DNA of 64,000 nucleotides. Origin: an uncultured bacterium. GTDB taxonomy: Bacteria; B130-G9. Both the position numbers and the translations under genes were made by a program. The stretch spans positions 4,298-68,297 of the forward strand of contig CBDVDH010000014.1 of the NCBI GenBank assembly GCA_965372715.1, in the 5' to 3' direction. Positions 10,105 through 55,829 of this stretch are shown here, in pieces. The stretch's first letter is position 1, and every line of letters begins with the position of its first letter. The notes beneath the pieces are model-generated. The model searched no databases. It worked only from the letters and a program-made list of their open reading frames with translations, and was not told the origin of the DNA.

Positions 10105-10126
10105 GGCAATCTCCCGTTTCTTACCA

Positions 10127-13407: not shown

Positions 13408-13500
13408 ATCTCGAGTATTCCAGCGATCAGGCAGGCACGGCGACCTGGCGTTACGCTATGAAGCAATCCTTGTATAGGCTGGCTAAAGAGGCAAAAGGGA

Positions 13501-26756: not shown

Positions 26757-26763
26757 CTACCAT

Positions 26764-27818: not shown

Positions 27819-27824
27819 ACGGCA

Positions 27825-28127: not shown

Positions 28128-28264
28128 TGCTCAAATCCTCCCGACTGCCGATGCAGCTGACAAATCAAATCCTTCCCTAACCGTGGGCCATGCAGAGGGG
28201 ACGCCAACGATTGCCCCTCTCTGCATTGCCGCGGCGGATTCCTCTATTCCCTCAAATGTGACCC

Positions 28265-29773: not shown

Positions 29774-30996
29774 TCAAAAGGCGTGTAGCCTCGGGCGTCT
29801 TTGGGGAAATCGAGGATCATGACTGGCTCGGGCAAGGTCAGTCTCGAGAGTAGCGTCCCTTCAAGATCATAGACAGCATAGCCAGATATGGCCAATGCGT
29901 CCTCCTCCCACTCACCCTTCAGTAGCCCGAATCTTTTGTTGTCACGGGAACACCGGATTCTTAAGGCGTGCACCTCCTTCAGCACCAGTTTTTTGTGTCC
30001 GGTACCTGTTTCGAGGCGCCAGAGAGTGCAGGACCGACTTGACAGGTGTGCGCCTTCCCGCGCAACGTAGAACATGAACCTCAGGTCGGGCGTAACTCCC
30101 GAAAGACCACGCGTACCTGCAACCAGAGTCTTGCCGGCCTGGACGAAGTCCGCGGTAGCTTCAGGACCTAAGGGATTGCCTCGCACGACGCCCACAATTG
30201 GCTCGGCGTCCGGCGGCAAAACGCAGCTGTCAACCGATACTGTATCCTCTGGCAACGGAATAAGCTTTTCGAGCGAGCCATCTTCCAGAGAGTATATCGC
30301 CACGTTGATACGACTATTCGATACCTTGTCAGGGGGCGCGGAGTGAACGCGCTCGAACTGGCCAGCGCCAGGCCTCTTCGCCAGAGATCCGGGAATGTGT
30401 TTTCCTTGGATGATGACCGGAAGTACTCCTGGAGACACGCCAACCTTGTAAACACAAATCCCGACATCCTCGGTTCTGCAAAGCAAAGTATCCAACAACG
30501 CGTTCTCGCTATCCAAGCAATAGATACACGGAAGGATGGAACCACCGACATCCTCCCCCCGCAGGAGCCGCTCGCACTCGTCACCGCGAACCCCATTCAG
30601 AAGAAAAAAGCGTGGGAAACCCGCATTGGAGAAGAACGGGAAGCACGGCATCCGGCCCGACCCAGCGATTTCTTGAAACCTGTGCACCGCTACGTCTGGT
30701 CCCGACCAAAAACAGAGCTGACCAAGCTCAATGGGATGCGCGGTGTCCCCATTAACCACGATGGTCCGGGTCCTCTTGAGATACGCAACGGAAGAACTTT
30801 CAGCAACAAAGGCGAGGTCTCGAACTCCTTGGCACCGTTTCTCTTCAGCGCCGATTCTGCCTGATCCACCGAGATGGCAACCTGATATCAGAAGGGCGCA
30901 GACCACCAGAAGGGCTATGACCGGCAATCTAGGTTTGTGTCTTCCTCGGAAGACCCTGGTCCATGATCGATCTCTCTGCATACTGTTGTCTCCCAA
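29671..30996 (-). CDS. Lipoprotein of unknown function; candidate immunity or accessory protein of the upstream Rhs cassette.
   Basis: Lipobox-like LLVVCALLISGC after a basic N-terminus; there are no recognisable catalytic motifs. The annotated 5' end overlaps the start region of the 28265..29773 ORF, so one of the two starts is likely internal. Confidence 0.4.
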   Translation of the reverse strand: MGDNSMQRDRSWTRVFRGRHKPRLPVIALLVVCALLISGCHLGGSGRIGAEEKRCQGVRDLAFVAESSSVAYLKRTRTIVVNGDTAHPIELGQLCFWSGPDVAVHRFQEIAGSGRMPCFPFFSNAGFPRFFLLNGVRGDECERLLRGEDVGGSILPCIYCLDSENALLDTLLCRTEDVGICVYKVGVSPGVLPVIIQGKHIPGSLAKRPGAGQFERVHSAPPDKVSNSRINVAIYSLEDGSLEKLIPLPEDTVSVDSCVLPPDAEPIVGVVRGNPLGPEATADFVQAGKTLVAGTRGLSGVTPDLRFMFYVAREGAHLSSRSCTLWRLETGTGHKKLVLKEVHALRIRCSRDNKRFGLLKGEWEEDALAISGYAVYDLEGTLLSRLTLPEPVMILDFPKDARGYTPFDWDLDGEQLVYWDKKADMIVIKKFNGTVVASFAP

Positions 30997-31115
30997 TATT
31001 AAAAGTTTGACGCCTTCATTCCTGGTTCCCGCATGAGACCCGGCGCAAGGCCGGCAGTTTGGGTCAGCGACTCAGCATTAGGGGCATCAAATTCAATGCA
31101 ACACTCGTGATCCTG

Positions 31116-32732
31116 CTACAGTATCAGGGGGCCTTCTGGGTCAGAAGCAATCGGAGGTGGTTCGACTAGCTTTCGCTTGCCACCCCCCTGATCGGGATGA
31201 CCACTCCAGTCGTTGATGCGGCTGCATCCAGTGCGATCCCCCAAGCCAGGGTCAGTGAATCCCGGACGCTCACCGCCTGTAAGGAGCCGGGTGTTGTCGA
31301 TCTCTCGCTGCAGAAATCGCATTTGTGCCTCAATTCCTGCCATCAGGCCGCGAAACACATCCTGGCCCGGGTTGCTCTGGCCCCCTTGGAGCATCTGGCC
31401 TATCATCATCTCCCCTATCAACCCAGGAGGCATTCCCATTCCATTGCACAAGCCTTCCCCGATAGCCACGCCAATGGTGAAGGCACCTGCCGCAGCCTTA
31501 TGTGGCTTCTTCTTGATTATGCCTGTTGCGAGGTCGGATGCCCCTTTCGCGGCGCCCCGGCCCTTAGCCCAGCCATATGCCTTTCGCCAACCCCACTCGA
31601 TCGCATCTGCAACGGGATGTTTCGGGCCTGAGCAGGGAAGAATTATCCACCACCACCAAGGGCCTGGCACCGCGACTGGGATGCCACCGTCAATGTCTCC
31701 GCCTTGGCTTGACAAGTTCAGATCATTGGAGCCGATTGAGCTGCCGGCGAGCATGCCAAATGGGTCGGTGAAGTTTTGGGGGGAGTTGTTGCAGTAGGCG
31801 TAGAGGGAGGAGAGGGACATGATGGGGTCGCGGGAGAAGAAGCGCCCGAGGGATTGGTTGTAGTAGCGGGCGCGGTAGAAGTAGGCGCCCATCGCTCCGT
31901 CATAGACACGGCCAGTGAAGCGATACATGCAGTCCACCTGCCCTGAGTGATACGTCGCGGTTGGCTCGCCGAACGCGTCGTAGCTGTAAGTGGTTTTGAG
32001 GGTCTCGTTCTCGTCCAAGATATCTATTATCGAGCCGAGGCGGTCCTTCATCAGGTAGTAGGTGTCGTCCGCCTGCTTCGCCGTCTTGTCAGTCATTGAG
32101 AGAGGCTCGTCAACCCAGGGCCCGTGCGTGTATTCTTTTCTAACGGTTGACCAGTTGGAGTCATATTCCTGAATCACATCGTTTCCGTCATAGAAGAACT
32201 TACGCGTGCCGGACGAGTCTGTCAAGCTGAGGCGCTTGCTGTCAGGGCCGTAGGTCATCGACTGGAGCGTCGTTTGCCCCTGGACGACGGAGCTCATCCG
32301 GTCGAATGGGTCGTAGTTGAACGTCTTGGTGACGCCGCCGGTCGTCTCACCGGTGAGGTTCCCGTTGTTGTCGTGGGAGTAACTCGTGCCGATTGTGCCC
32401 TCGGTCGATTGTGTCAGCTGGTCGGCGGAGTTGTAGATGTAGGACACGGTGGCGTTCGAGCTGCGTGCCCACTCCGTCCTGTTGCCGTTGTTGTCATACG
32501 TGAACGTGTCGGTATTCCCCGCTGGATAGGAGACTTCGGTCAGCTGCCCCTCGGCGTCGTAGCTGTATTCCGTCTCGCCAACGTTGTACTCGTCCTTCTC
32601 GGTGACCTGCCCGCAGGCGTCGAACGTGTATTCGATGCTCGACACAGTCGTCCCGTCCGACTTCAGGTTGTCAATCGCCCACATCCGGCCTCTCCTCAGC
32701 AAGGGCGAGTGTGTCTCCAATGACTCGGCCAA
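31116..32732 (-). CDS. Orphan Rhs/YD-repeat C-terminal cassette with a Trp-rich/glycine-rich tip that differs from 28265..29773.
   Basis: It starts in YD repeats (MWAIDNLKSDGTTVSSIEYTFDACGQ...), has the core-end motif ...YFYRARYYNQSLGRFFSRDPI, then PGPWWWWIILPC...GAFTIGVAIGEGLCNGMG and the shared MPPGLIGEMM...DWSGHP tail. Confidence 0.75.
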   Translation of the reverse strand: MAESLETHSPLLRRGRMWAIDNLKSDGTTVSSIEYTFDACGQVTEKDEYNVGETEYSYDAEGQLTEVSYPAGNTDTFTYDNNGNRTEWARSSNATVSYIYNSADQLTQSTEGTIGTSYSHDNNGNLTGETTGGVTKTFNYDPFDRMSSVVQGQTTLQSMTYGPDSKRLSLTDSSGTRKFFYDGNDVIQEYDSNWSTVRKEYTHGPWVDEPLSMTDKTAKQADDTYYLMKDRLGSIIDILDENETLKTTYSYDAFGEPTATYHSGQVDCMYRFTGRVYDGAMGAYFYRARYYNQSLGRFFSRDPIMSLSSLYAYCNNSPQNFTDPFGMLAGSSIGSNDLNLSSQGGDIDGGIPVAVPGPWWWWIILPCSGPKHPVADAIEWGWRKAYGWAKGRGAAKGASDLATGIIKKKPHKAAAGAFTIGVAIGEGLCNGMGMPPGLIGEMMIGQMLQGGQSNPGQDVFRGLMAGIEAQMRFLQREIDNTRLLTGGERPGFTDPGLGDRTGCSRINDWSGHPDQGGGKRKLVEPPPIASDPEGPLIL

Positions 32733-32768
32733 ACCGATGCCATTCAGGAACTATCGCGCGCAACCCAA

Positions 32769-33065
32769 TCACTGGTTCTCTTCTTGAGATTCGTGTTTCT
32801 TGATTTCTTCGTTGTATTGACACAGCAGCAATCTCAGCATCATCAAATACAAGACTGGGAAACCGATTACACCCACTGCGACCACCACATACACGGCCAG
32901 ACCGAAGTCTCTCGGATGACCGCGGCTCATCATACTCACTAGAACCATAACTCCCAGCCCAAACACTATAGTAGCAATAACACTGGATGAAAATGCCGCG
33001 ACTGAGCCCACGGACCGTTGTACCCACGCCCGGGGGTTTCTAAATGGATTGATGAAGATTTTCAT
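32769..33065 (-). CDS. Small membrane protein; candidate immunity protein.
   Basis: Two or three TM helices (VAAFSSSVIATIVFGLGVMVLVSMM, LAVYVVVAVGVIGFPVLYLMML). It lies between two Rhs cassettes on the same strand. Confidence 0.4.
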   Translation of the reverse strand: MKIFINPFRNPRAWVQRSVGSVAAFSSSVIATIVFGLGVMVLVSMMSRGHPRDFGLAVYVVVAVGVIGFPVLYLMMLRLLLCQYNEEIKKHESQEENQ

Positions 33066-33128
33066 GCGCTCATTTCCTTGTAAGTCATGAATGTGATTCC
33101 CCGACGCGTCACCTGTTGTGTCATTCTG

Positions 33129-34175
33129 TTATGGCCATCTGGGGTTATGGGGATCGAATTCGGAGCCCTTGGGATCACCTTCGCCTGCATGATCTTCCTC
33201 ACCGCCAATAGGATTGTCCATAATGAGGACGGCAACACCAACCCCGGCGATGGCAATGCCGCCTGTCGTACTAATTCCCAAGATACCAGCCACGAAACCA
33301 GCTACGGTCAAGGCCGCCCCAAGAACACTCCAGGAGCTGGTTTCCTCTTCCGCCTCCTCTTCCTTCACCCATACCGTCTCCCCATCATCCGCTACGTATT
33401 TCTCGGCACCATCCTCGTCCTTCTCGCCGGTGCTTGTATAGGTTTTGCCATTGATCACTATCTTATCGCCTTTCTTCGAGCACGGCAGTCCCGTCATCCT
33501 GCGATGCCAAATTAGGCCAAACCCCATTTCGCTGGGGACGAACTCATCTCCGCCGATAGAGAGCCCTAACATCCCGAACGGGTCCTTGAAGTTCGTGGGG
33601 CTGTTGTTGCAGTAGGCATAGAGGGATTGGAGTGAGAAGATGGGATCGCGGGAGAAGAAGCGGCCGAGCGATTGGTTGTCGTAGCGGGCTCGGTAGAAGT
33701 AGGCGCCCATTGCGCCGTCATAGACGCGGCCGGTGAAGCGATACATGCAATCGACCTGGCCGCTGTGGTGGGTTGCGGTTGGCTCGCCGAACGCGTCGTA
33801 GCTATATGTTGTCTTGAGCGTCTCGTTCTCGTCGAGGATGTTGATTATGGAGCCGAGGCGATCTTTCATTAGGTAGTAGGTGTCGCCGGCCTCTCTTGCA
33901 GTCTTGTCGGTCATGGAGAGTGGCTCATCGATCCAGGGCCCGTGCGTGTATTCTTTGGTCACGGTGCTCCAGTTTGAGTCATATTCCTGAATCACGTCGT
34001 TTCCATCGTAGAAGAACTTGCGCGTGCCGGACGCGTCTGTCAAGCTGAGGCGCTTGCTGTCGGGGCCGTAGGTCATTGATTGGAGCGTCGATTGGCCCTG
34101 GACGACGGAGGTCATCCGGTTGAACGCGTCGTAGTTGAACGTCTTGGTTACGCCGCCGGTCGTCTGGGTTGTCAT
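33129..34175 (-). CDS. Orphan Rhs/YD-repeat C-terminal cassette with an acidic and glycine-zipper tip.
   Basis: Core-end motif ...YFYRARYDNQSLGRFFSRDPI, followed by the unique tip ...EEEAEEETSSWSVLGAALTVAGFVAGILGISTTGGIAIAGVGVAVLIMDNPIGGEEDHAGEGD. Confidence 0.75.
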   Translation of the reverse strand: MTTQTTGGVTKTFNYDAFNRMTSVVQGQSTLQSMTYGPDSKRLSLTDASGTRKFFYDGNDVIQEYDSNWSTVTKEYTHGPWIDEPLSMTDKTAREAGDTYYLMKDRLGSIINILDENETLKTTYSYDAFGEPTATHHSGQVDCMYRFTGRVYDGAMGAYFYRARYDNQSLGRFFSRDPIFSLQSLYAYCNNSPTNFKDPFGMLGLSIGGDEFVPSEMGFGLIWHRRMTGLPCSKKGDKIVINGKTYTSTGEKDEDGAEKYVADDGETVWVKEEEAEEETSSWSVLGAALTVAGFVAGILGISTTGGIAIAGVGVAVLIMDNPIGGEEDHAGEGDPKGSEFDPHNPRWP

Positions 34176-34277
34176 GTTGCCGTCCCTAGCCTGACGCGAA
34201 CCGGGAAATGAGATTTTTGCAGCGTATGGCTGCCTCCGCTTGATGGAGCCGTCCGAATGCGCGTAAACGACGGGCGC

Positions 34278-35537
34278 CTATTTGCCCGCCGTCGGTGGCG
34301 ATGGCTTCTTTGCGTCCTTGAGTATCTTCCCGACACCGTATGTCGCCTTCTTCAAGACCTTAGCCTTATTGGTCTTGAAGTCATACCTGATTATCCTCCA
34401 TGGTCTTGGTGGCGGGATGTGATAGATCAGGCAATCCTCATGATCGAAGTAATGCCAACAGTCAAGTGTTGTACACGGCGAAAGATCGCCGCTGGTAACG
34501 ACGGCCCTTCGTGCTACAACGTTCAGGGTCCGATCGGTTGTGGTAAGGTGCAGTGTCTCTCCGTTGCAGCTGGCGAAAACGAGGCGATCGCCGGGAACGG
34601 ACCAACCCATACGGGTCTGGTTCGATTTGCCTGGCATATCAGGTACGGCGGTCGGCCCAGCAATTTGGGCTATTCGGCCGCTCGAAAGAGCCCAAATCGA
34701 GACGAGGGACCGCTTGGCTCCCGGGGCCTTGTGAAACGCCGAGAAATAATTGCGGTCGCAGGAAAAAGCAAGAGTGTCGGCATCCAATGGGTCTTCGTCC
34801 GTTAGGTAATGACTGGCGGCTCCCTTTGAAAGGTCTGACAGGTTGAAGGTAACAGCATAGATGCGTGGCCCACCCTTGGGCTCGCTCCTGAACTCTCTCA
34901 TCAGAAGGCCAATGTGGCTATCGGAAGTGTCCAGCAATGTACCCACCAAGCTCGAGCCCCTGGGGACGGAATAAGGCGCCTCGGCTAAGATCCTCCCGTC
35001 CGGACGTGCAATCCTGAATAGCCAACGCTCAAAAGGGCCATCCTCCTCGGCAGAGCGCTCCTCTGCTTTGAATACGAACGCCCATCCCTCGAGAGAAGCA
35101 AGATAAGAGGAGACACACGCAGGAAAAGGCACGCTCGGGAGCTCTATTCTATACTTCGACACGGCCTCCCTTTTTCCTGTTTGCAGAACCTCAAACCAGA
35201 AGCGCGGTATGCGCTCCACTCGATAAATCATAACACCCAAGTCTCTCGGTGAAGCCTCCTCAATTATGGCCAGAAGGCTGTACTCGGGGACGATCTGCTC
35301 ATTTTCCCGGTCGAGCAAAACCACCCACTCATCGCATCCAACCAAATAGAGCTTCGCTTGAAATTCTACCTTCGCCTCCTCGGGATACTGTGATGGAGCA
35401 GGCCATTTCGTTTCCCAAATCACTAGATTGCCCGACTCTGTCGGGCTTGAGAAGATGAAAGACCCGGAATACTTCCGCTCCGCCGCCAAAACCTGGGGTA
35501 GAAGCAGCAACAGAATGAGTAAGCTACGACCAATCAT
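34278..35537 (-). CDS. Secreted protein of unknown function; candidate immunity or accessory protein.
   Basis: Signal peptide MIGRSLLILLLLLPQVLAAE; no recognisable catalytic motifs. It lies downstream of the 35600..36463 cassette. Confidence 0.4.
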   Translation of the reverse strand: MIGRSLLILLLLLPQVLAAERKYSGSFIFSSPTESGNLVIWETKWPAPSQYPEEAKVEFQAKLYLVGCDEWVVLLDRENEQIVPEYSLLAIIEEASPRDLGVMIYRVERIPRFWFEVLQTGKREAVSKYRIELPSVPFPACVSSYLASLEGWAFVFKAEERSAEEDGPFERWLFRIARPDGRILAEAPYSVPRGSSLVGTLLDTSDSHIGLLMREFRSEPKGGPRIYAVTFNLSDLSKGAASHYLTDEDPLDADTLAFSCDRNYFSAFHKAPGAKRSLVSIWALSSGRIAQIAGPTAVPDMPGKSNQTRMGWSVPGDRLVFASCNGETLHLTTTDRTLNVVARRAVVTSGDLSPCTTLDCWHYFDHEDCLIYHIPPPRPWRIIRYDFKTNKAKVLKKATYGVGKILKDAKKPSPPTAGK

Positions 35538-35599
35538 GTCTCTATATGCTCCTTTGCTGCAAAAGCGTGTTGTTCCACCAACAATCGGGAATTCTATCT

Positions 35600-36463
35600 T
35601 CAGCCCTCCGGAAATTCAAGATCGGGACGTCGAAAGGCTATCGCTGGGTCTGGCGGCGGCGGGAGGTCCCCATTGAGGGCCCAAAGCATGCAAGCCCCTG
35701 GACACCACAACCGCACTGCCCACCCGTAGTCCTCCGGGCTCAGATTGTCCCACGCGCAACTGGTGCAGCACCTCAGACAACAGGACAGCTTTTTCCCAAA
35801 ATCGGTGTGCTGCGCACATTTCTCGGCGAGGCATTTGATAACCCAAACATAGAACTTGCCCCAATCTGAGACCTTGCCAACAACTGCACGCATACGTTCG
35901 ACCTCAATGGGGCCGAAGAAGGCCTCGATTGGGTCCACCAAAGGCTCGTACTCGGGGCGGCCCGTCAGCGATTCGTCTGACAGCCCCGTCGGGTCGGTGA
36001 AGTTTGCCGGCGAGTTGTTGCAGTATGCGTAGAGGGATTGCAGCGAGAAGATGGGATCGCGGCAGAAGAAGCGGCCCAATGATTGGTTGTAATACCTCGC
36101 CCGATAGAAGTAGTTGCCCATCGCGCCATCATAGACGCGGCCTGTGAAGCGGTACATGCAATCAACTTGGCCGCTGTGGTGGGTGATTGTGGGGTCGCCG
36201 AAGGCGTCGTAGCTGTAGGTTGTTTTGAGGGTTTCGTTCTCGTCGAGGATGTCGATTATCGAGCCGAGGCGATCTTTCATTAGGTAGTAGGTGTCGCCGG
36301 CCTCCCTTGCAGTCTTGTCCGTCATCGGCGGAGAGCCTCCGCTCCCGAGACATGGGCCGAGGCGCCGCGTTCGCGTCGCTTCGGCTGTGGAGGCGAGCTC
36401 GGAACGTGCGAGCCGTCCGGTTTCATACGCAGGTAGAGAAAGGTATCCGAGTGCCGTGGGCAC
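35600..36463 (-). CDS. Orphan Rhs C-terminal cassette with a Cys-rich tip. It is degraded at the 5' end, where frame changes join it to fragment 36322..36594.
   Basis: ...MTDKTAREAGDTYYLMKDRLGS...YFYRARYYNQSLGRFFCRDPI, then the tip ...CLAEKCAQHTDFGKKLSCCLRCCTSCAWDN...LWCPGACMLW. Confidence 0.65.
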   Translation of the reverse strand: MPTALGYLSLPAYETGRLARSELASTAEATRTRRLGPCLGSGGSPPMTDKTAREAGDTYYLMKDRLGSIIDILDENETLKTTYSYDAFGDPTITHHSGQVDCMYRFTGRVYDGAMGNYFYRARYYNQSLGRFFCRDPIFSLQSLYAYCNNSPANFTDPTGLSDESLTGRPEYEPLVDPIEAFFGPIEVERMRAVVGKVSDWGKFYVWVIKCLAEKCAQHTDFGKKLSCCLRCCTSCAWDNLSPEDYGWAVRLWCPGACMLWALNGDLPPPPDPAIAFRRPDLEFPEG

Positions 36464-44706: not shown

Positions 44707-47010
44707 TCAATAAGCGATCGAAAACGGGAACGAGCTTGGCTGGCCGATGACCTCGAATCGGATCGGCTTGGACAGGGCGCTGGCGAAGAGGTAGTTGCCC
44801 ACGGGAAGCCCGCCCGGAACTAGTGTGCTTAGAAGAGTGGTTGGGTCCATACAATAGCCTCGCGGCAGAAGCAGACCCCTCATATAAGGGAATATCCCGA
44901 ACGCAATCCTATCCGGAGAGATACACAAAATGGCTCCGTCGGGGAAGACGAAGGCGAAATAGACATCCACAAAAACGTCCGAGCCCATGTTCTCAATCTC
45001 ATACGCGGCAACGAGCGTGTCGCCGAGCGCAAACTCTGTGTTGTTGAGCGAGCAGTCGATCGTTGGTTTCTCGGCAGCAGGTATGAGGACGCTGACGCCG
45101 CCGTGAGGCGTCCCGAACCACTTGCTCCCGTCGGGAGCTATGGCGATGGCCCAGACATTGTCGTAGCCCAAACCGCTGTTGCCGGTATTGTAAGTCGTCC
45201 AGCTGCCGTCGCCGTGCAGGACGCTCACGCCGCCCAAACGCGTCCCGAACCACTTGCTCCCGTCAGAATCTATGGCGATGGCATAGACCCAATCGTCGGC
45301 CAAACCGCTGTTGCCCGTGTTATAAGTCGTCCAGCTGCCGCCTGCGTGCAGGACGCTGACCCCGCCGCTCCGCGCCGTCCCGAACCACTTGCTCCCGTCG
45401 GGAGCTATGGCGATGGCATTGACATAGTCGTCGGCCAAACCGCTGTTGTCCGTTCTGTAAGTAGTCCAGCTGCCGTCGCCGTGCAGGACGCTGACCCCGT
45501 ATGACGTCCCGAACCACTTGTTCCCATCAGAATCTACGGCGATGGCATCGACCCAGTTCGAAGCCAAACCGCTGTTGCTCGTATTGTAACTCGTCCAGCT
45601 GCCGTCGGCGTGCAGAACGCTGCCTCCGCCGCCCCGCGTTACAAACCATTTGCTCCCTTCAGAAGCTATGGCGATGGCCCAGACCGAATCGTGGGCCAAA
45701 CCGCTGTTAGCTGCATTGTAGGTTGTCCAGCTGCCGGCTGGGTGCAGGACGCTGACGCCGCCCGACGTCCCGAACCACTTGCTCCCATCGGGAGCTATGG
45801 CGAGGGCATGGACATAGTTGTCGGCCAAACCGCTGTTGGCCGTATTGTAAGTCGTCCAGCTGGCGTCGGGGTTCAGCACGCTAACGCCGCCCCCCGTTAC
45901 AAACCACTTGCTCGCGTCGGAATCTATGGCGATGCCATGGACAATGTCGCTGGCTAAACCGCTGTTGCTCGTATCAGGAGTAGTCCAGCCGCCGTCGGGT
46001 TGCAGGACATTGACGCCGCCGCAATCCGTCCCGAACCACTTGCTCCCGTCGGGACCTATGGCGATGGCCTGAACATAGTTGTCGGCCAAACCGCTGTTGG
46101 CTGTATTGTAAGTCGTCCAGCTGCCGTCTGGGTGCAGGACGCTGACCCCACCGGGGTAGAATCTAGCGTCTCCGTACACGTAATGCGTGCACGTCCCGAA
46201 CCACTTGCTCCCGTCGGGACCTATGCCGATGGCCCGGACATAGTCGCTGGCCAAACCGCTGTTGGACATATTGTAAGTAGTCCAGCTGCCGTCTGGGTGC
46301 AGGACGTTGACCCCACCGGGGTATATTCCGCCAATAGAGCCTGCCCCGAACCACTTGCTCCCATCGGGAGCTATGGCGATAACATTGATCGGTAAGACCG
46401 CCAAACCGCTGTTGAACATACTGTAAGTAGTCCAACTGCCGTCGGTGTGCAGCACGCTGACGCCGCCCGACGTCCCGAACCACTTGCTCCCGTCAGAATC
46501 GATGGCGATGGCGCTAACCCTATCGCTGGCCAAACCGCTGTTGCCCATATTGTAAGTAGTCCAGCCGCCGTCGGCGTGCAGGACGCTGACGCCGCCTCCC
46601 CACGTCCCGAACCACATGCTCCCGTCAGAAGCTATGGCGACGGCCTGGACATAGTCGCTGGCCAAACCGCTGTTGGCTGTACTGTAGGTAGTCCAGCTAC
46701 CGTCAGCATGCAGGACGCTGACGCCGCCTCCCCAAGTCCCAAACCACTTGGTCCCGTCAGAAGCTATGGCGACGGCAAAAACGCGATTTGCGGCCAGGCC
46801 ATCGGCGCGGGTGTAAACCGTCTTATCGCCGGTTCGCAAATCGAATCGCACAACGCCCCCCGACCCTCCGCACCACACGTATTCGTCGCCCTCAAAAGCG
46901 ATGGCGCGAACCTCCGTACCGGCGGTGTAGTTGAGCCATGTGTCCCCGGCAAACGTCGTTGCCGCAATGAACACAAAAACCAGCGTGGTCACAGTCAGTC
47001 CCAAACGCAT
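44707..47010 (-). CDS. Secreted beta-propeller protein with about 15 two-component-regulator-propeller (Reg_prop, Y_Y_Y-type) repeats and a C-terminal roughly 115-aa domain shared with the first ORF of the window.
   Basis: Signal peptide. Iterated 45-aa units ...GSWTTYNT.NSGLA.DYV.AIAID.DGSKWFGT.GGVSVLH. The C-terminal IDCSLNNTEFALGDTLVAAYEIENMGSDVFVDVYFAFVFPDG resembles VSCSLNADEFASGDLMRGFMSVENRGVDVMVDIFAVITMQDG of ORF 1..2615. Confidence 0.75.
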   Translation of the reverse strand: MRLGLTVTTLVFVFIAATTFAGDTWLNYTAGTEVRAIAFEGDEYVWCGGSGGVVRFDLRTGDKTVYTRADGLAANRVFAVAIASDGTKWFGTWGGGVSVLHADGSWTTYSTANSGLASDYVQAVAIASDGSMWFGTWGGGVSVLHADGGWTTYNMGNSGLASDRVSAIAIDSDGSKWFGTSGGVSVLHTDGSWTTYSMFNSGLAVLPINVIAIAPDGSKWFGAGSIGGIYPGGVNVLHPDGSWTTYNMSNSGLASDYVRAIGIGPDGSKWFGTCTHYVYGDARFYPGGVSVLHPDGSWTTYNTANSGLADNYVQAIAIGPDGSKWFGTDCGGVNVLQPDGGWTTPDTSNSGLASDIVHGIAIDSDASKWFVTGGGVSVLNPDASWTTYNTANSGLADNYVHALAIAPDGSKWFGTSGGVSVLHPAGSWTTYNAANSGLAHDSVWAIAIASEGSKWFVTRGGGGSVLHADGSWTSYNTSNSGLASNWVDAIAVDSDGNKWFGTSYGVSVLHGDGSWTTYRTDNSGLADDYVNAIAIAPDGSKWFGTARSGGVSVLHAGGSWTTYNTGNSGLADDWVYAIAIDSDGSKWFGTRLGGVSVLHGDGSWTTYNTGNSGLGYDNVWAIAIAPDGSKWFGTPHGGVSVLIPAAEKPTIDCSLNNTEFALGDTLVAAYEIENMGSDVFVDVYFAFVFPDGAILCISPDRIAFGIFPYMRGLLLPRGYCMDPTTLLSTLVPGGLPVGNYLFASALSKPIRFEVIGQPSSFPFSIAY

Positions 47011-48970: not shown

Positions 48971-49407
48971 GCCAGCTTGTTCGGCATTGAGTCCTGTCCT
49001 GCCTGGGAATGATTCCCGCCGATGAAAACCGCGCGGCCAACGTTTCGCCCCGGTTTTCCTCCACGACGGGTGTGACTCTAGATTCTAGGTAGATGATTTG
49101 CTGTCATCTCGACCGCGTTTCAACGCGGTCATATAGATGGCTCTCATTATATTAGCACCCGACTTCGAGTCGGGTGAGTTGAGGACGTGAGGCACAGCCT
49201 CCTCCCTCCCCAGAATCCTCATCTGATGAGAACGTAAGGGAGCGTTTTCGGCTCTCCAGACCCCACAGCTGAAGCAGTGGGTTAATACATGATAGCCTTG
49301 TGCATCGCCTCGGCTGAAGCCGGGCGATGAGGGAACTAGCGCATGATGCGCCTCGGCCCCCTAACCCGCGAGCCAGCACCATTTATAGGGGGACAAAAGC
49401 CAAGACT

Positions 49408-49491
49408 CGACGTTACCTACAATCCAGGGTCAAACCCGGCACGACCTGTGCCTTGCTGCCTTTCTCGCTTTCTTCCTTACATAATCAGCAG
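49408..49491 (-). pseudogene. Possible decayed remnant of the conserved small Cys-peptide gene family, downstream of beta-helix gene 49492..51123.
   Basis: Minus-strand frame reads KEESEKGSKAQVVPGLTLDCR-stop, weakly resembling KKEGHGYEPPRVLTLDNE of the intact peptides. There is no start codon. Confidence 0.25.
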
Positions 49492-51123
49492 CTAACGGAG
49501 CCGCATCGCCGCACGGCCGAGAGGCAGTTCGATCAACTTGAAGCTTATTGGAAGCCTCGCCGAAACCGGCCCGTGGGCCGTCCACTTGCCGCTGGTCTCG
49601 ATGTCAACCAGCCAGTAGTTGTAGGTGACGCCCGGCGCAGCGTCCATATCCACGAAAATGTACGAGGCGCCGTAGGCTGGGCTGCCTTCCGCTCCGATCA
49701 GGTTGCTTATCCGGAGGTAGTCGCTCGTGTCTGCAACATTCCTGAAGAGCATGAAGCCGGCGTTTCTGATCTCGGTCCCCGTTTCCCAGGCCAGAATGAT
49801 AGAGCCGTCGTGGGGCTTGGCCTCGAACGACACCAGCTCGATATATGTGCAGCCCCATCTCTTGTAATGATAGCCCATATCGACCCTGTTGATGTCGATC
49901 AGCGGGTTTGAGTTGTTCCGGTGATCGGTCGAATACTCAGTGTTCGTCGTGGGGTCATTGAATGGGTTTTCAGCAGGGCCGCCCTCGCCCGTGTCGATGC
50001 ACGGGCTGGGTCCCGTATGGCTCGTGTGATACAGGAAATAGCCGTCATACGGCATGTTCTCGAGCCCTATCTGGTGAAACTGAGGAGGCGAACTGATGTT
50101 GCCCTCGCCGTCCCAGTCACCCTGGATACAAGAGTAAGTGATGACGATTGAGTTGCTCGACTCCCCGTCTCCACCTATCTCGTCCGGGGAATCGCCCCAG
50201 AAGATAGAGTTCACCACTGTTGGCTCGCACTCGGAGTTCATGAAAAGTGCCCCACCGAGACCGGTTGCAGTGTTCCCCGAAAACGTGCAGTTCGTGATGA
50301 CAGGCGAGGCGTTGTCGCAGTATATGCCCCCTCCATTGCCGTCACATAAGTTGTCGATGATCAAGCAGTTGGTGAGCCCTACCGACGTAGAGGCGTTGTC
50401 GCAGTAGATGCCCCCACCGTCATCACCATCACCATCACCAGTGGCCGAGTTCCCTGCGATCACGCAATCCGTGAAACTCGGCGAGGAAGCGGAGTTGGAA
50501 TAGACGCCGCCACCGCCATCACCAATATCACCACCAGTGGCCGAGTTCTCTGCGATCACGCAGTTTGAGACGTCTGGCGAGGCAGAATCGTCGCAGTAAA
50601 TGCCGCCGCCACGGTCTGCAGAGTTACCGGTAATGCGGCAGTTCGAAATGGTCGGGGAGGCGTCGTTGCAGTAGATACCGCCACCAGCGTAACCGGCCCA
50701 GTTTGAGACCCAGTGACCGCTCCCATTCGTGATCGTGAAGCCATCGATGGTCACGTCGGTGATGCCATTGCAACTGATCACCCCGTCCGTCTGATTCGCG
50801 TCAATGGTTGTGTCAGGATGGCCCGATCCGAGTAAGGAGACACCGTCCCTCATTACCAGGGGGAACTCTTCGCCGTTATTGTCAAAGTCGTAAAGGCCAG
50901 GGGCCACATGAATCGCATCACCGGCCGTAAGGTCAGTATCTGCTAAAGCATCGGTTATCCGTTTGTACGGGGCCCCAGCCGTGCCATCATACGATGGCCC
51001 GGTTGCATCGTCATCAACATAAATATCGTCTCCAAAGGCGCCGGCTACCATGATCGCGAACATCATGACCATGGTGGCGAGCGTCAATCTAATCTCTCGT
51101 CGTGAATACATCTCTCTCCTCAT
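49492..51123 (-). CDS. Surface/secreted right-handed parallel beta-helix protein with a conserved C-terminal roughly 115-aa domain; array member 1.
   Basis: N-terminal signal-anchor. Pectate-lyase-like cap YVDDDATGPSYDGTAGAPYKRITDAL. GGGIYC rungs are repeated about 8 times. DMGYHY junction, then the C-terminal AWETGTEIRNAGFMLFRN...YNYWLVDIETSGKWTAHGP. Confidence 0.8.
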   Translation of the reverse strand: MRREMYSRREIRLTLATMVMMFAIMVAGAFGDDIYVDDDATGPSYDGTAGAPYKRITDALADTDLTAGDAIHVAPGLYDFDNNGEEFPLVMRDGVSLLGSGHPDTTIDANQTDGVISCNGITDVTIDGFTITNGSGHWVSNWAGYAGGGIYCNDASPTISNCRITGNSADRGGGIYCDDSASPDVSNCVIAENSATGGDIGDGGGGVYSNSASSPSFTDCVIAGNSATGDGDGDDGGGIYCDNASTSVGLTNCLIIDNLCDGNGGGIYCDNASPVITNCTFSGNTATGLGGALFMNSECEPTVVNSIFWGDSPDEIGGDGESSNSIVITYSCIQGDWDGEGNISSPPQFHQIGLENMPYDGYFLYHTSHTGPSPCIDTGEGGPAENPFNDPTTNTEYSTDHRNNSNPLIDINRVDMGYHYKRWGCTYIELVSFEAKPHDGSIILAWETGTEIRNAGFMLFRNVADTSDYLRISNLIGAEGSPAYGASYIFVDMDAAPGVTYNYWLVDIETSGKWTAHGPVSARLPISFKLIELPLGRAAMRLR

Positions 51124-51284
51124 TCACGCTAAGCGTTCTGTTTCAGTTTCGCAGTCTGCTATCTATAAGCGCACTCTCCTATGCGCCTCCTTCCGTCTTT
51201 ACGCTTGAGTCAACCTCAATCCTTCATCCAACCATTGCAGCTTCGGCCGGCTGGAAGTTCGCCCGCGCGAATCTCCGAGAGCAG

Positions 51285-51381
51285 CCCTACACTGGCAGGC
51301 TAGAAAGCCTACCCTACGCTGACAGGCTAGAAAGCCCGCCCTACACGTTCACGGCCTGGGGCGGGGCGAAAGCCCCGCCCT
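51285..51381. repeat. Two reverse-orientation copies of the 27-bp unit (ggcaggctagaaagccYRccctac) followed by the hairpin ggggcggggcGAAAgccccgccc.
   Basis: Reverse complement of the 26764-26868 tandem unit; a perfect 10-bp stem hairpin at 51359-51381. Confidence 0.8.
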
Positions 51382-51440
51382 CAGCCGCATAGTTCATCTG
51401 CTCGCTGCCGAGCCAGCGATTTCAGTTGAACATTCTACCG

Positions 51441-51632
51441 TTAGCAATAACTAGTTACTGAGCCGCCGAAGCCCGTGCACGAAAGGCTAGGCGCAAGTGC
51501 CGCGAGCAAAGTCTCGTTGTCTAACGTCTGAACCTTCGGCGGTTCATAGACGCATCTATCGTTCATGCAATTACCTCCATGGCCTAACGAGTTTCCGCTC
51601 TCCAGCATCCCTTTACTATTCATCGCGCTCAT
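51441..51632 (-). CDS. Conserved 63-aa Cys-containing small protein, translationally coupled (ATGA overlap) to the upstream beta-helix gene.
   Basis: MSAMNSKGMLESGNSLGHGGNCMNDRCVYEPPKVQTLDNETLLAALAPSLSCTGFGGSVTSYC. The C-terminal 35 aa are conserved with the 53689..53880 paralog. The SLSCTGFGGS stretch differs at 4 synonymous and 0 nonsynonymous sites between the copies. Confidence 0.55.
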   Translation of the reverse strand: MSAMNSKGMLESGNSLGHGGNCMNDRCVYEPPKVQTLDNETLLAALAPSLSCTGFGGSVTSYC

Positions 51633-53353
51633 CGTACTAAGGCCTCCAACTTTGGGAGCCTTAAGATGGGCTCAACGATGTTCGGGATTCTGGCGAACGC
51701 CGGGCCGTGGGCCGTCCACTCACCACTGGTGTCAATGTCAACCAGATAGTAGTAGTAGCCCGCGCCCGCCGCCACGTTAGCGTCGGTGAACGAGTAGGTA
51801 GCGCCTCCGACCGCATCGCCATCCGCGGCAATGAAGTTGCTGACTTTGTGGCAGTCACTGGCCTCATTGTCGCACCGATACACTAAGAAGCCGGCGTTAT
51901 CGATCTCGGTCGCCGTCTCCCATTTCACAACCACCTTCCCGGCATGAACCTCCGCACACAGCGAATCGAGCTCGATGTAGGTGTTGCCAAGGCACCGATA
52001 GTGGTAACCCATATCGATCACGTCGCCACTAGTGGAGCCATCTATGACAGCTGCAACATCAGTCGAGAACTGGTTGGGGGTCTTGAGCTCGCTGTAGCGA
52101 TTCGTTGCGACCTCGTTCCCGCCATCAATCACTGTGCTCGGACCCGGCGAATCCCGGTCAAGAAAGTACCCGTTGCAGTACGGATCTACATCACCGCCAA
52201 TGGACTCGAAGTATGGGTCAACTTTGATGTTGTTGGCACCGCCCGGATAGACGCCACCTGCCGTACCGTCGATGTCCGAGTAGTCGATGGTGAGGGAACC
52301 AACGTTGACGTAAACATCCCAGGTCGTCGCCTCGGCGTCGTTGTCCCAGATGATGTTGTTCTCACCCGTCGTACAACATGTGTCCCCGGCAAACAGACCA
52401 TAGCCCGTGTTATCGGCAATGGTATTGCTGTATAACCTGAGATTGGCACATCTCCCAATATCCACAGCTACATGGACACCTCCGCCATCAGACCTAATTG
52501 CGGTGTTTTTGACAATCAGATTGTTGAACAGCTCTGTCCCGTCTCCGTCCTGCTTCTTTTCTTCCTCGCCGGTAGCTGTTCCGTTGTTGCCAATCAGATA
52601 GATGCCGCCACCGTGCGCAGTCGCATAACCACCAAAGAAGTTGCTGGTTATGCAGCAGTGCTCTATAATCAGAGCGTTGGGCGTCTTCTCATCATCGTCG
52701 AAGGCGTCGGCCTCACGGACATAGATGCCAGCACCGCTTCCATACATGCTCTTGTTCCCGTCGATGATGCACTCACAGATGGTGCCGCCGCACCGCTCGA
52801 GGTAGATGCCTCCGCCACCGGCACCGCTAGTGGTATTTGCCACGTTGTTCTTGATGGTGCACCATTCGATCGTCAGGTCCTCGCACCACTTCGCGTAGAT
52901 GCCTCCTCCGTCACCGGACGCCGTACCATCCTGGATGCACAGATTCTTCATCGTGAAGCCGATCACAGGAGTACTGTCATTGTCGCCAATGATCGAGAAG
53001 ACGCCACCGGTGCCGCTTGGCTTGACTATTTTCTGCAAGACGTTTGCACCCACGCCCTGAAGCGTCACGCCGTTATGTGTAGGCGTGATCAAGATCGGGT
53101 ACTGGCCACCGCTGAACGAGGTCTCATCATTGTAGATCCCGTGCTTGACGTTTATCACGTCACCCGAGGTGTGCGCAACCGACAGGGCCTTGGTTATGTG
53201 CTTAAAGGCCTTGGCCCAATCCGAGCCGTCCTCGTTGTCGTCACCGTCGGTCTTCACGTAGTACTCGGTTGCTGCGAAGGCGCCTACGACCATGACCGCG
53301 AACATCACGAGCACGGTCGCAATTGTTAAACGTAATTGTCGGCTAAGATACAT
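51629..53353 (-). CDS. Surface/secreted right-handed parallel beta-helix protein with a conserved C-terminal domain; array member 2.
   Basis: Signal-anchor MYLSRQLRLTIATVLVMFAVMVVGAFA; GGGIY rungs; DMGYHYRCLGNTYIEL..KWETATEIDNAGFLVYR..YYYYLVDIDTSGEWTAHGP. Confidence 0.8.
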   Translation of the reverse strand: MYLSRQLRLTIATVLVMFAVMVVGAFAATEYYVKTDGDDNEDGSDWAKAFKHITKALSVAHTSGDVINVKHGIYNDETSFSGGQYPILITPTHNGVTLQGVGANVLQKIVKPSGTGGVFSIIGDNDSTPVIGFTMKNLCIQDGTASGDGGGIYAKWCEDLTIEWCTIKNNVANTTSGAGGGGIYLERCGGTICECIIDGNKSMYGSGAGIYVREADAFDDDEKTPNALIIEHCCITSNFFGGYATAHGGGIYLIGNNGTATGEEEKKQDGDGTELFNNLIVKNTAIRSDGGGVHVAVDIGRCANLRLYSNTIADNTGYGLFAGDTCCTTGENNIIWDNDAEATTWDVYVNVGSLTIDYSDIDGTAGGVYPGGANNIKVDPYFESIGGDVDPYCNGYFLDRDSPGPSTVIDGGNEVATNRYSELKTPNQFSTDVAAVIDGSTSGDVIDMGYHYRCLGNTYIELDSLCAEVHAGKVVVKWETATEIDNAGFLVYRCDNEASDCHKVSNFIAADGDAVGGATYSFTDANVAAGAGYYYYLVDIDTSGEWTAHGPAFARIPNIVEPILRLPKLEALVR

Positions 53354-53688
53354 CTCTTTTTTTCCTCCTATTTTTCTCTCAGCCTACTAAAGTTAGTGTC
53401 CTTCTCACTCCTGCGGCGAGGCTTCCTCGCGCCAGGCATGCTCTGGGCGATGAACCGCCGCAGAGAGGACACGATTGTGAATTTCACTCCCTATGCTTCC
53501 TCCTTTCTTCGTTTTCTCGGCCATTTTGATGCAAGCAGAACACGTGCGGCGTTTTCAGCGCTTGCGTTCCTGAAAGCGCCAGGTTTTGAGTTTGCCCGTC
53601 TCATCGCCTCCCTAATCTCTAAGAACTTGCGTTAAGATGTTCTCAATGTCCCTAATAAGCCTAATAGAGAGTTCTCTGCGCTCAGCAG

Positions 53689-53880
53689 TTAGCACTTAAC
53701 AGAGCCGCCAAAACCCGTGCAGGACAAGCTGGGCCCAAGCACGGTTGTCAGCATCTCGTTATCCAGCGTCAGAACCCTGGGCGGCTCGTAGCCGTGCCCT
53801 TCTTTCTTCATAGAAGCGCCTCCTAAATGAAATGAATCCGTATTATTCAGACCTTGGTTGTCGGGTAGAATCATTCTCAT
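53689..53880 (-). CDS. Conserved 63-aa Cys-containing small protein (start at the Met giving an ATGA overlap with the upstream beta-helix gene). The longer ORF to 53895 is an alternative.
   Basis: MRMILPDNQGLNNTDSFHLGGASMKKEGHGYEPPRVLTLDNEMLTTVLGPSLSCTGFGGSVKC. It has the same length and the same coupling geometry as 51441..51632. Confidence 0.55.
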   Translation of the reverse strand: MRMILPDNQGLNNTDSFHLGGASMKKEGHGYEPPRVLTLDNEMLTTVLGPSLSCTGFGGSVKC

Positions 53881-55829
53881 CTGACCGCCCTCCAATGGAC
53901 GAGCTCGCGCTCAATCCTGATAGGCTCAACGAGAACCGGGACCCTCGCAAAGGCCGGCCCGTGCGCCGTCCACTTGCCGCTTGTGTCAATGTCAACCAAC
54001 CAATACTCGTAATGAGCTCCCTGCCCGACATCCTCATCGACGAAGCTGTAGGAGGCGCCGGACGCGGCCGTTCCTTCGGCGCCGATCAGGCCGCTTATGC
54101 AGCAATAGTCCTGAAGACCAGCGTCAGAGCGGTAGATCACGAACCCAGCGTTGTCTATCTCGGTCCCTGTCTCCCAGCTCAAGACAACGTCGCCTCTTGA
54201 GGCGCGAGCCGTGAACGACGCCAGCTGCACGTAGCTTGCCCCAAACGTGCGATAGTGGTAGCCCATGTCCATCTCATCACCACCGCAGGGATATTCGACG
54301 GAGGGCTTGTTAGACCCATCATAATAGCCTCGAACGTCGGTCGTGAAGGGATTCGTGTCCATGATCTCCGCTGGGTGATAGGTCTTCGCGCTGTCAGAAG
54401 TGCCAGAATCTATGGGGCTCACAGCTGCTGGGGGTCGCTCAAGGAAATAGCGCTGGCATATCACCTCATAGTCGCCGTAGTGCTCAAACAGAGGGTCTTC
54501 GCAGATGTTGTGGCTTTTCCCATCAGTGTCGTCCTGGCCCGGATAGGCACTCCCCTCATAGCAGATGTCGGAGTACATGACGTCGGCCTCACCCTCGTAG
54601 CCATCATCTCGGAAGGCCTCGCAGTCGTCCTCCACATCACCGTCTGGCCAGAAAATGTTATTTCTGCCTTTGAAGGTGATGTTCTTACAGTTCTGACTCA
54701 TATAGACTTCGTAGCCGGCGTTGTCCGTGACTGTCACGTTGTAGAAACTGAAAAGCGGGTAGCCCCAGCTGCACATATAGGCGCCGCCGCCCTCGTAGCC
54801 TTCGCCCCTCTCACGGTAGTAATTGCCGTCGTGGTCGTCGACTCCGCCAATGCTGTTCTCAACGATGAGATCGTTGAACACGATGTGTTCGATCTGGCCG
54901 CTAAGAGTATAGTCAAACATGTACAGCCCCGCGCCTCTACTGGCCGTGTTGGTGTGGATGCACGTGTGCTTAATCAGCGCCGGCGCGTAGTTTGAGCATA
55001 TTCCGCCGCCTCCCATGCCAGTTACGTTGTCGTGGATGAGGCAGTTGTCGATTGTAGTGATCGGCTCGATGCCGGTGTAACAATCACGAAGATAGATGCC
55101 GCCGCCCCCGGCCAAGCCAGGTGGATCCTGAGTGCCCCAGTCACACCAGGTTGGCGTATCTCCGTCCCGGGACGCATAGCTACCTTTGGCATCATTTCCG
55201 GTGATCTCGCAGTCCTTGATGAGCAGGTTGGTCGCTAGGTAACAGTAGATGCCGCCGCCATTTGCTTCCGCATAATCGCTGTCATCTGAGCCGGTGACAT
55301 AGCCGCCGGTGATCGTGAAGCCCTCAAGAACGAAGTCATCAAGAGTGCAGTCATCCTTAATGCCCGCAAGCGTGAGAACTCGCCTCTTGTTGCTGTCGCT
55401 GCCCTCTGCGTCGAGAATCGTCATACCCATTCCCGCTCCTAGCAGTTTAATCCCGTCGTGGGAGCAACCTATCGAGATCGGGAATGTCTCGTTTGTCGCG
55501 GTTGGGCTGTAGATCCCAGCCTTAATGTGGATAACATCTCCTGACGTGGCCTTGCCCAGAGCGTATTCGATCGTTCTCCAGGCTTTAGGCCAGCTCAGGC
55601 CGTCGAAGCTCACAAGGTCCTGGCCGTCCGTCTTGACGTGATAATCCTCCGCATAGGCGCCGACCACAGCTACGAGCAACATGGTCAATACCGTCGCGCC
55701 GGTTATCACTATCTCCATACGAATTCGCATACATCTCCTCCATTCGTATTGTTGCACAGCGCGGCTTAAAACAAGGTATCTTTCAGACATGATCTTTATT
55801 GTTAACCCACGACATCGCAAATCCCTCAT
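53877..55829 (-). CDS. Surface/secreted right-handed parallel beta-helix protein with a conserved C-terminal domain; array member 3.
   Basis: Signal-anchor; cap YHVKTDGQDLVSFDGLSWPKAWRTIEYAL; GGGIY/GGGIC rungs; DMGYHYRTFGASYVQL..SWETGTEIDNAGFVIYR..YEYWLVDIDTSGKWTAHGP. Confidence 0.8.
   Translation of the reverse strand: MRDLRCRGLTIKIMSERYLVLSRAVQQYEWRRCMRIRMEIVITGATVLTMLLVAVVGAYAEDYHVKTDGQDLVSFDGLSWPKAWRTIEYALGKATSGDVIHIKAGIYSPTATNETFPISIGCSHDGIKLLGAGMGMTILDAEGSDSNKRRVLTLAGIKDDCTLDDFVLEGFTITGGYVTGSDDSDYAEANGGGIYCYLATNLLIKDCEITGNDAKGSYASRDGDTPTWCDWGTQDPPGLAGGGGIYLRDCYTGIEPITTIDNCLIHDNVTGMGGGGICSNYAPALIKHTCIHTNTASRGAGLYMFDYTLSGQIEHIVFNDLIVENSIGGVDDHDGNYYRERGEGYEGGGAYMCSWGYPLFSFYNVTVTDNAGYEVYMSQNCKNITFKGRNNIFWPDGDVEDDCEAFRDDGYEGEADVMYSDICYEGSAYPGQDDTDGKSHNICEDPLFEHYGDYEVICQRYFLERPPAAVSPIDSGTSDSAKTYHPAEIMDTNPFTTDVRGYYDGSNKPSVEYPCGGDEMDMGYHYRTFGASYVQLASFTARASRGDVVLSWETGTEIDNAGFVIYRSDAGLQDYCCISGLIGAEGTAASGASYSFVDEDVGQGAHYEYWLVDIDTSGKWTAHGPAFARVPVLVEPIRIERELVHWRAVR

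Follow-up and report, generated by a model that had tools for sequence, protein, structure and literature searches.

Introduction

Precursors of peptides that are made ribosomally and modified after translation (RiPPs) are usually viewed as substrates inside their own biosynthetic cluster, which end as free small molecules or cofactors. QhpC, the gamma subunit of quinohemoprotein amine dehydrogenase, is made with a leader peptide, modified by a SPASM enzyme in the cytoplasm and exported, and becomes a one-to-one subunit of Sec-exported proteins. Lasso leaders that are bound by RiPP recognition elements (RREs) typically show the pattern Y-x-x-P-x-[LV]-x-x-[LF]-G. The SynChlorMet cassette (ScmC/D/E/F) and the HPr-rel-A system (HprK-related kinase A with a PqqD family chaperone) have, to our knowledge, no characterised function. 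Here we describe a stretch of 64,000 nucleotides (the window) from an uncultured bacterium (GenBank assembly GCA_965372715.1, contig CBDVDH010000014.1, positions 4,298 to 68,297), in which short peptide genes stand beside genes for beta-helix proteins that share a C-terminal domain (CTD). We suggest, with a probability of roughly 0.55, that these peptides represent an undescribed family of RiPP-type precursors coupled one-to-one to CTD-bearing secreted proteins, for which we infer modification, export and physical interaction. In contrast to the usual view, this precursor-like family is copied many times per genome and the shared CTD links every copy with a secreted enzyme, while in a distant phylum the same peptide-CTD pair lies inside a cluster of radical SAM, PqqD and PorU-like peptidase genes.

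Results

Two of the beta-helix genes on the minus strand, BH3 (53877-55829) and BH2 (51629-53353), are each followed on the same strand by a small gene. The one after BH3, pep2 (53689-53811), encodes 40 amino acids and a stop (MKKEGHGYEPPRVLTLDNEMLTTVLGPSLSCTGFGGSVKC), with a leader that carries the YExPxV motif and a core of LGPSLSCTGFGGS..C. The one after BH2, pep1 (51441-51566), encodes 41 amino acids and a stop (MNDRCVYEPPKVQTLDNETLLAALAPSLSCTGFGGSVTSYC). The original prediction had read both as 63-residue open reading frames (ORFs) coupled to the upstream gene by an ATGA overlap, and the public record likewise calls them as unnamed 63-residue proteins. Both longer frames do begin with an ATG overlapping the TGA of the gene before them, but the conserved product is 40-41 residues long and starts at internal ATGs. 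Each small ORF has its own Shine-Dalgarno site, AGGAGG at 53819-53824 for pep2 and GGAGG at 51574-51578 for pep1, in both cases 7 nucleotides 5' of the ATG (at 53811 and 51566), so that the ATGA overlap is incidental. Such a site precedes the short-form ATG in all 29 related genes tested on other contigs, most database homologues are 38-43 residues long, and several have an in-frame stop directly 5' of the short form. For these reasons, what had been taken for divergent Asn/Ser/Gly-rich N-termini of the peptides is most likely untranslated spacer carrying the Shine-Dalgarno site, 65 nucleotides between BH3 and pep2 (53812-53876) and 62 between BH2 and pep1 (51567-51628). The pep2 spacer differs from that of its orthologue in locus L009 at 4 of 65 positions, and the 40-residue form of pep2 has an exact match in a public collection. 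The start codons of peptide genes that current annotation miscalls or omits are thereby corrected, to 40 rather than 63 residues.

The small ORFs are securely shown by their codon pattern to be translated under purifying selection, as had been proposed. The two window copies are 64% identical and share YEPP[KR]V.TLDNE.L...L.PSLSCTGFGGSV..C, in which the core differences are synonymous only. Across the codons of SLSCTGFGGS, the earlier count of four synonymous sites was too low; five codons (6 nucleotides) differ, and all of the differences are synonymous. Over 27 homologous genes, all synonymous codons are used to encode the invariant GPSLSCTGFGG, with AGY as well as TCN for Ser and CTN as well as TTR for Leu. 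A lipoprotein or signal-peptide reading of 'SLSC' was discarded on inspection, because the stretch before the Cys, in which Asp and Glu occur, lacks hydrophobic character, and residues -3 to -1 misfit a lipobox.

BH1 (49492-51123, minus strand) has no intact peptide gene. A decayed remnant had been proposed after it, and a gapped local DNA alignment does match the 5' half of the pep2 region to 49422-49475 on the minus strand (translation ..KAQVVPGLTLDCR and a stop). The score is 24, against a mean of 16.9 (standard deviation 2.6) for shuffled sequences, but 8 of 300 shuffles scored as high, so that this stretch is a candidate only. In another locus (L010, 5622-5735) a degenerate copy, MNNIYEVPRVITLDNTALTNLLGANVSHTVFGGAAIC, in which the first Cys is replaced by His, has a CTD gene on either side; it is probably a paralogue in decay, comparable to the candidate remnant behind BH1.

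A database search with pep2 retrieved 69 homologues (E 4e-21 to 1e-7). Among reference genomes, scanned at one genome per species, the close peptide family was found only in metagenome-assembled genomes (MAGs) of Candidatus Coatesbacteria, at 18 loci in 5 genomes with several loci per genome. The L009 locus is syntenic with the window, and we therefore place the window in Candidatus Coatesbacteria. All of these peptides consist of a leader, M-x4-6-YExP+V-x-T-[LF]...L...LGP, followed by the core SLSCTGFGGS-x1-5-C; the core and the Y..P.V.T of the leader are invariant across the Coatesbacteria copies. The peptide matched nothing in Pfam, in NCBIfam (including its precursor models) or among PDB sequences, in agreement with the earlier statement that it could not be placed in any known family. 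A literature search on the core motif, the cluster type, the pairing and Coatesbacteria found nothing relevant on the peptide, the CTD or their association. The intergenic regions gave no Rfam match for a regulatory RNA, and promoter and terminator scans there stayed at background level.

With hidden Markov models (HMMs) of the peptide and of the domain, the peptide gene was found to adjoin a co-oriented CTD gene in 30 of 31 non-redundant copies. In 23 of the 31 it lies 2-135 nucleotides downstream of the stop of the CTD gene, and the remaining paired ones lie just upstream of genes for C25 or C1 peptidases with a CTD; the C25-CTD proteins of Coatesbacteria are always preceded by a peptide gene. 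The neighbours are beta-helix proteins at L001 and L004, a papain-like peptidase at L005 and gingipain-family proteins at L007, and all end in the same domain of about 100 residues, which blastp recognises across the different passengers at 45-71% identity (E 1e-23 to 1e-58). By Pfam, the passengers of 41 CTD proteins are Beta_helix in 24, C25 in 6, C1 in 2 and Kelch in 1, with the rest unassigned. Beta-helix paralogues that stop right after the DMGYHY junction (window 156-2615; L004 10743-12452) have no peptide gene. In a third lineage of low GC content, where the core reads SCSGYGG, the peptide gene is followed by a CTD gene in all four cases.

Because papain-like, gingipain-like and Kelch proteins with the CTD have the same peptide beside them, the partner of the peptide, as judged from gene neighbourhood, is the Fn3-like CTD and not the beta-helix, which appears as one of several interchangeable passengers. 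The idea of a dedicated partner therefore survives in the adjacency and common orientation, but not in its assignment to the beta-helix protein. The idea of a cognate inhibitor or immunity partner, also listed in the original prediction, was neither strengthened nor weakened. The proposed check whether homologues always follow beta-helix genes with the same ATGA coupling gave a negative answer, given the spacers of 2-135 nucleotides, the other passengers and the occurrence of either gene order. The association is also old, since it is seen in Coatesbacteria, in the SCSGYGG lineage and in the radical SAM cluster of L030; it spans lineages and is embedded at least once in such a cluster. We found it described nowhere in the searched literature. 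No other gene family recurs beside the modules except Redoxin/AhpC-TSA, which is present at 3 of about 22 loci, and Redoxin genes were accordingly rejected as a component of the system.

Exhaustive profile searching extended the family further, to distant relatives with the motif [YF]ExP+V.T[YL]..[DE][DE][IL]L.ELGPA.AC (also seen as YExPxVxTYxxEELLxxLGPAxAC before a variable core) and with varied residues after the Cys. A second profile search raised their count to at least 171. A narrower metagenome scan with the peptide gave only 4 loci. Homology searching of the kind that had been recommended produced 69 close homologues and at least 171 sequences after widening; even on a conservative reading, at least 240 sequences make up a precursor family that is new, and a new domain model comes in addition. 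Conservation across the subfamilies covers the leader YExPxV..T..L...LGP and the first Cys, which is the one universally conserved residue after LGP; the residues that follow it vary by subfamily. In the Aminicenantes type (L031 10001-10225; P0151, P0161, P0166, P0172, P0185, P0200), the precursor is without the second Cys and has a long Pro-rich C-terminal extension ending ...PGYAPGLPPAFYEPPDKKKK(L).

Several of the distant relatives lie among genes for peptide modification. A standalone PqqD gene is beside the precursor in L027, and L039 has PqqD, the precursor and a PqqD-fused radical SAM/SPASM gene. In L031, from an Aminicenantes MAG, the precursor is accompanied by genes for a radical SAM/SPASM enzyme, an HPr-kinase-like protein, a C25 peptidase and PqqD, and L032 has the same set more spread out. 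L030 contains PqqD, two PqqD-radical SAM/SPASM genes, a gene for a 597-residue protein, the precursor, and genes for an HprK-like protein, a C25 peptidase and a signal-peptidase-like protein. The 597-residue protein bears the same CTD (HMM E 6e-20) and a tail ending in Arg; its gene separates the radical SAM genes from the precursor and has its stop 18 nucleotides before the latter. A frameshifted CTD copy is also present just upstream of the precursor in L032. The suggestion that the peptide might be RiPP-like is supported by these neighbourhoods. The proposed check for modification enzymes near homologues gave a divided answer: they stand beside the distant relatives at these five loci, but none stands near any Coatesbacteria copy.

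The radical SAM enzymes of L030, L031, L032 and L039 are orthologous (34-42% identical from end to end). In NCBIfam they match peptide maturases best (mycofactocin, StsB sactipeptide, ScmE/F and PapB ranthipeptide), always below the cut-offs, and the QhpC-related TIGR03906 is among the weak matches. The kinases of the clusters resemble HprK-related kinase A. The PorU sortase model recognises the C25 peptidases of the clusters at E 1e-67 to 1e-86, with scores below its cut-off. The C25-CTD proteins of Coatesbacteria match a profile of PorU-like proteins at E 1e-13 to 1e-15 and have no NCBIfam match, which makes them distant homologues.

The CTD consists of about 100 residues and a tail of 17-33 residues that usually ends in Arg. 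Arg is the very last residue in 29 of the 35 complete Coatesbacteria CTD proteins (window and L001-L026) and also in the distant L030 protein; the CTD proteins of the L033 lineage end in ..LF instead. An AlphaFold2 model of the last 131 residues of BH3 (mean predicted confidence, pLDDT, 87) predicts a seven-strand beta-sandwich of Fn3 topology at residues 14-110, with a tail of low confidence. The best Foldseek match of the model is the immunoglobulin (Ig)-like domain of PPAD, a cargo of the type IX secretion system (T9SS), and the fold match is one to generic Fn3. At E <= 1e-3, no Pfam family covered the CTD in any of 41 proteins, and neither NCBIfam nor the sequences of PDB chains gave a match. 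In a remote relative, P0221, a PF18962 domain follows a CTD-like domain, which is the sole such case. A database search with the CTD profile returned only short fragments, and the wider distribution of the domain is therefore poorly sampled.

The three beta-helix genes were found where they had been predicted, as minus-strand paralogues with 33-36% identity over the full length. Their CTDs are 55-58% identical and form the DNA stretch best conserved among them (repeat family D1), and the DMGYHY junction is present in all three, again as had been noted. BH1 encodes 543 residues with a signal peptide, a beta-helix with Chlam_PMP/NosD-type repeats, DMGYHY, an Fn3-like CTD at about 49549-49845 and a tail ...AAMRLR. 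BH2 (574 residues) has a signal peptide, beta-helix, DMGYHY, an Fn3-like CTD at about 51683-51979 and a tail ...LEALVR, and an identical protein exists in a public collection. BH3 (650 residues) has a signal peptide, a right-handed beta-helix, DMGYHY, an Fn3-like CTD at about 53937-54233 and a 25-residue tail ending in Arg. The CTD HMM matches BH1 at E 2e-49 and BH2 at E 3e-48. All three are parallel beta-helix (pectate-lyase-like) passengers by Pfam Beta_helix/DUF1565: BH1 matches at E 1.5e-15 and 4.6e-16, together with Chlam_PMP and NosD repeats, BH2 matches Beta_helix at E 6.8e-12, and BH3 matches DUF1565 at E 8e-6 with Beta_helix just under the cut-off. A fourth beta-helix/DUF1565 ORF on the plus strand (156-2615; 819 residues as listed) ends in ...VDMGYHYPLP, with neither CTD nor peptide gene, and is a natural negative control for the pairing.

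The beta-helix proteins had been called signal-anchored. By inspection, their basic, hydrophobic and AxA-type N-termini (AFA|AT, AFG|DD, AYA|ED) are better read as cleavable Sec-type signal peptides. The start of BH3 is probably the ATG at 55730 (MRIRMEIV...), since the L009 orthologue begins MRIRTEIV; the longest ORF would then start 33 codons too early. We also considered Tat (twin-arginine) 'hitch-hiker' export of a CTD-bound peptide, which is not supported: among the signal peptides of the beta-helix-CTD proteins only some have RR-x-hydrophobic, with RQ, GR or IR at this place in close paralogues, and the C25 and C1 members look Sec-type.

Some further features of the window deserve mention. 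A 27-nucleotide tandem unit, TGTAGGGCGGGCTTTCTAGCCTGCCGG, with the palindrome CAGGCT-TTCT-AGCCTG, is present in 2.3 copies at 51285-51346, just downstream of pep1, and in 3.9 intergenic copies at 26763-26868; its 14-nucleotide core has 7 matches in the window against 0.01 expected, and it looks like a repetitive extragenic palindromic (REP)-like intergenic element. A block of Kelch, ResB, CcsA (cytochrome c assembly) and SIS genes at 9508-14574 (minus strand) is syntenic with L004 14226-19331, on a JGI contig, where the block stands directly downstream of a beta-helix-CTD and peptide module. At 44707-47010 (minus strand) there is a gene for a secreted protein of 767 residues with about 16 'two-component regulator propeller' (Reg_prop) repeats, which correspond to tandem DNA repeats with a period of 132 nucleotides; it has a weak PorZ match through the repeats only. 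Five ORFs with RHS repeats (229, 502, 538, 348 and 287 residues), separated by unassigned ORFs, occupy 27129-36463 (minus strand) and look like a fragmented or modular RHS/toxin locus. An 805-residue protein (5957-8374) and its 392-residue paralogue (3048-4226), both on the minus strand, have weak GILT, DsbA and thioredoxin-like matches and may be thiol-disulfide oxidoreductases; they are unlinked to the peptide modules.

Discussion

As far as sequence can tell, the peptide has what is expected of a RiPP precursor: its ORF is short and translated, and a conserved leader can be told apart from the core. In the reading that we favour, the N-terminal half would be a leader of the kind bound by PqqD-like RREs and the C-terminal half would be the core. 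The peptide gene would be co-transcribed with that of a Sec-exported protein. The first Cys would be modified by a PqqD-dependent radical SAM/SPASM enzyme, probably with a thioether-type link, and in Coatesbacteria the gene for this maturase would lie elsewhere in the genome. After modification, the peptide would be exported and act one-to-one with its cognate CTD; it would be either a small subunit or ligand bound to the domain or a group that a C25 (PorU-like) peptidase attaches. We suggest the one-to-one role because one peptide gene per cargo gene has been kept through many duplications and in either gene order, and this would be expected of a partner that is consumed or bound rather than of a catalyst or regulator. 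It is tempting to go further and to imagine a tagging or sorting system (a 'RiPP-sortase'), in which the radical-SAM-modified peptide is the one-to-one acceptor or partner of a cargo with a CTD and an Arg tail, a PorU-like C25 transpeptidase joins or processes both, and Coatesbacteria have expanded the system to one peptide gene per cargo gene. This extension is speculative and, in our opinion, quite improbable.

A number of observations weigh against the reading that we propose. There are 37 CTD genes and about 30 peptide genes in the loci examined, so not every CTD gene has a peptide. Conversely, the radical SAM clusters of L031 and L039 have no CTD gene within 10 kb, and the peptide can thus exist without a CTD partner. 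PqqD, radical SAM/SPASM and HprK-like genes are absent from the window and from about 280 kb of Coatesbacteria loci (about 26 loci with 31 copies). The peptide lacks a signal peptide, and its gene is not linked to that of a dedicated exporter. In the CTD model all seven strands of a complete Fn3 domain are present, so that a peptide is not required on structural grounds; the model gives no support to donor-strand complementation of an incomplete Ig fold, which we had entertained. No conserved Cys is found in the CTD, which makes an obligatory disulfide to the peptide unlikely, and this candidate was given up as well.

The peptide could instead be a natural product of the RiPP type that acts by itself, for example as a signal or an antimicrobial, with CTD proteins that are merely co-regulated or that process or export it, and without any one-to-one complex or adduct. 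The distant relatives do form ordinary-looking RiPP clusters, two of them without a CTD gene, multi-copy precursors are common in RiPP systems, and the cores differ between subfamilies as they do in natural-product RiPPs. However, it is not readily explained in this way that 30 of 31 copies adjoin a CTD gene irrespective of the passenger, with the same seen in the SCSGYGG lineage, nor is a core that is invariant across all Coatesbacteria copies. We also know of no RiPP clusters in which single precursor genes are dispersed, each next to one of several unrelated enzymes with a domain in common. On balance, we consider a free product unlikely, though by no means negligible. Alternatively, the Coatesbacteria peptide might be unmodified, or carry a disulfide only (C30 to the C-terminal Cys), and serve the CTD proteins as a small accessory protein (chaperone, inhibitor or stabiliser) after loss of the radical SAM machinery. 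This would agree with the missing maturase in about 280 kb around the 31 copies, with two invariant Cys that could form a loop of 9-12 residues, and with the Redoxin/AhpC-TSA genes near modules in three loci. On the other hand, the Redoxin link is confined to those 3 of about 22 loci, an invariant leader Y..P.V.T is hard to explain without a recognition partner, and the peptide has no export signal, yet its partners are exported. We think that such an accessory role is quite unlikely.

Two other explanations have less in their favour. A regulatory leader or ribosome-arrest peptide that controls the neighbouring secreted-protein gene would be short, with an extremely conserved C-terminal motif, and would lie upstream of its partner, as the peptide does in some loci. 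But 23 of the 31 copies lie downstream of the partner, where an unrelated gene or a long intergenic stretch comes next, and their homologues are precursors in radical SAM/PqqD clusters, so this role is very improbable. The original prediction had also raised a C-terminal extension of the beta-helix protein by programmed frameshifting or readthrough, which the open 63-residue frames in the window would permit. The spacers measure 2, 10, 11, 13, 16, 17, 28, 62, 65, 69, 72, 80, 88 and 135 nucleotides and cover all three frame relations, the peptide gene precedes its partner in the C25 and C1 loci, and every copy has its own Shine-Dalgarno site and ATG, some with an in-frame stop just upstream. 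With spacing and gene order so variable, we reject the extension and give it practically no credence.

If the peptide does bind or become attached to the CTD, this would be a new way to decorate, anchor or regulate secreted proteins. It would also provide a function for a widespread, unmodelled Fn3-like CTD. The modules offer a testable system in an uncultured candidate phylum.

Comparison with known systems

The leader motif Y-x-x-P-x-V-x-T-[LF] is like that of lasso precursors, and HprK-like kinases and a nucleotidyltransferase are also present in some lasso clusters. We nevertheless rejected a lasso peptide, because ...PSLSCTGFGGSVKC has no Asp/Glu that could close a macrolactam, the neighbourhood contains neither a lasso cyclase nor a B2 protease, and no NCBIfam lasso leader model matches. 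Asn-synthetase-like and transglutaminase-like genes were absent from the examined locus tables. The resemblance to QhpC is an analogy only: there is no sequence relation, and no dehydrogenase subunits, subtilisin-like QhpE or ATP-binding cassette (ABC) exporter are linked to the peptide.

In C-terminal sorting by the T9SS with PorU, diverse secreted enzymes likewise share a C-terminal beta-sandwich, and the distant clusters encode PorU-like C25 peptidases. These are PorU-like rather than PorU, with 271 (L030), 289 (L031) and 226 (L032) bits against the cut-off of 420 bits for NF033707. The CTD (41 proteins searched against Pfam, and NCBIfam) does not match the sorting-domain models PF18962 or TIGR04183 at its extreme C-terminus and carries an extra tail of 17-33 residues. 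No T9SS components were identified, and the T9SS involves no partner peptide.

The distant clusters combine PqqD, one or two radical SAM/SPASM enzymes and an HPr-kinase-like protein, as do the SynChlorMet cassette and the HPr-rel-A system, and they match TIGR04250/04251, TIGR04352 and TIGR04353 below the cut-offs. The scores fall short of membership (ScmE 131 bits against 400, HprK_rel_A 58 against 200, PqqD_rel_X 30 against 35), in the first two cases by far, and the distant clusters also encode a C25 peptidase of the PorU-like kind and, at some loci, a CTD protein.

The radical SAM/SPASM RiPPs with PqqD-type recognition (sactipeptides, ranthipeptides, mycofactocin and pyrroloquinoline quinone) differ from the present family in that here the genes for the precursor are spread out, each of them next to the gene for a secreted protein, with no maturase near the Coatesbacteria copies and with enzyme matches below the family cut-offs. 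They resemble it in that the precursor is short, with a leader that is conserved and a core that contains Cys, and in the PqqD and PqqD-fused radical SAM/SPASM genes that flank its distant homologues.

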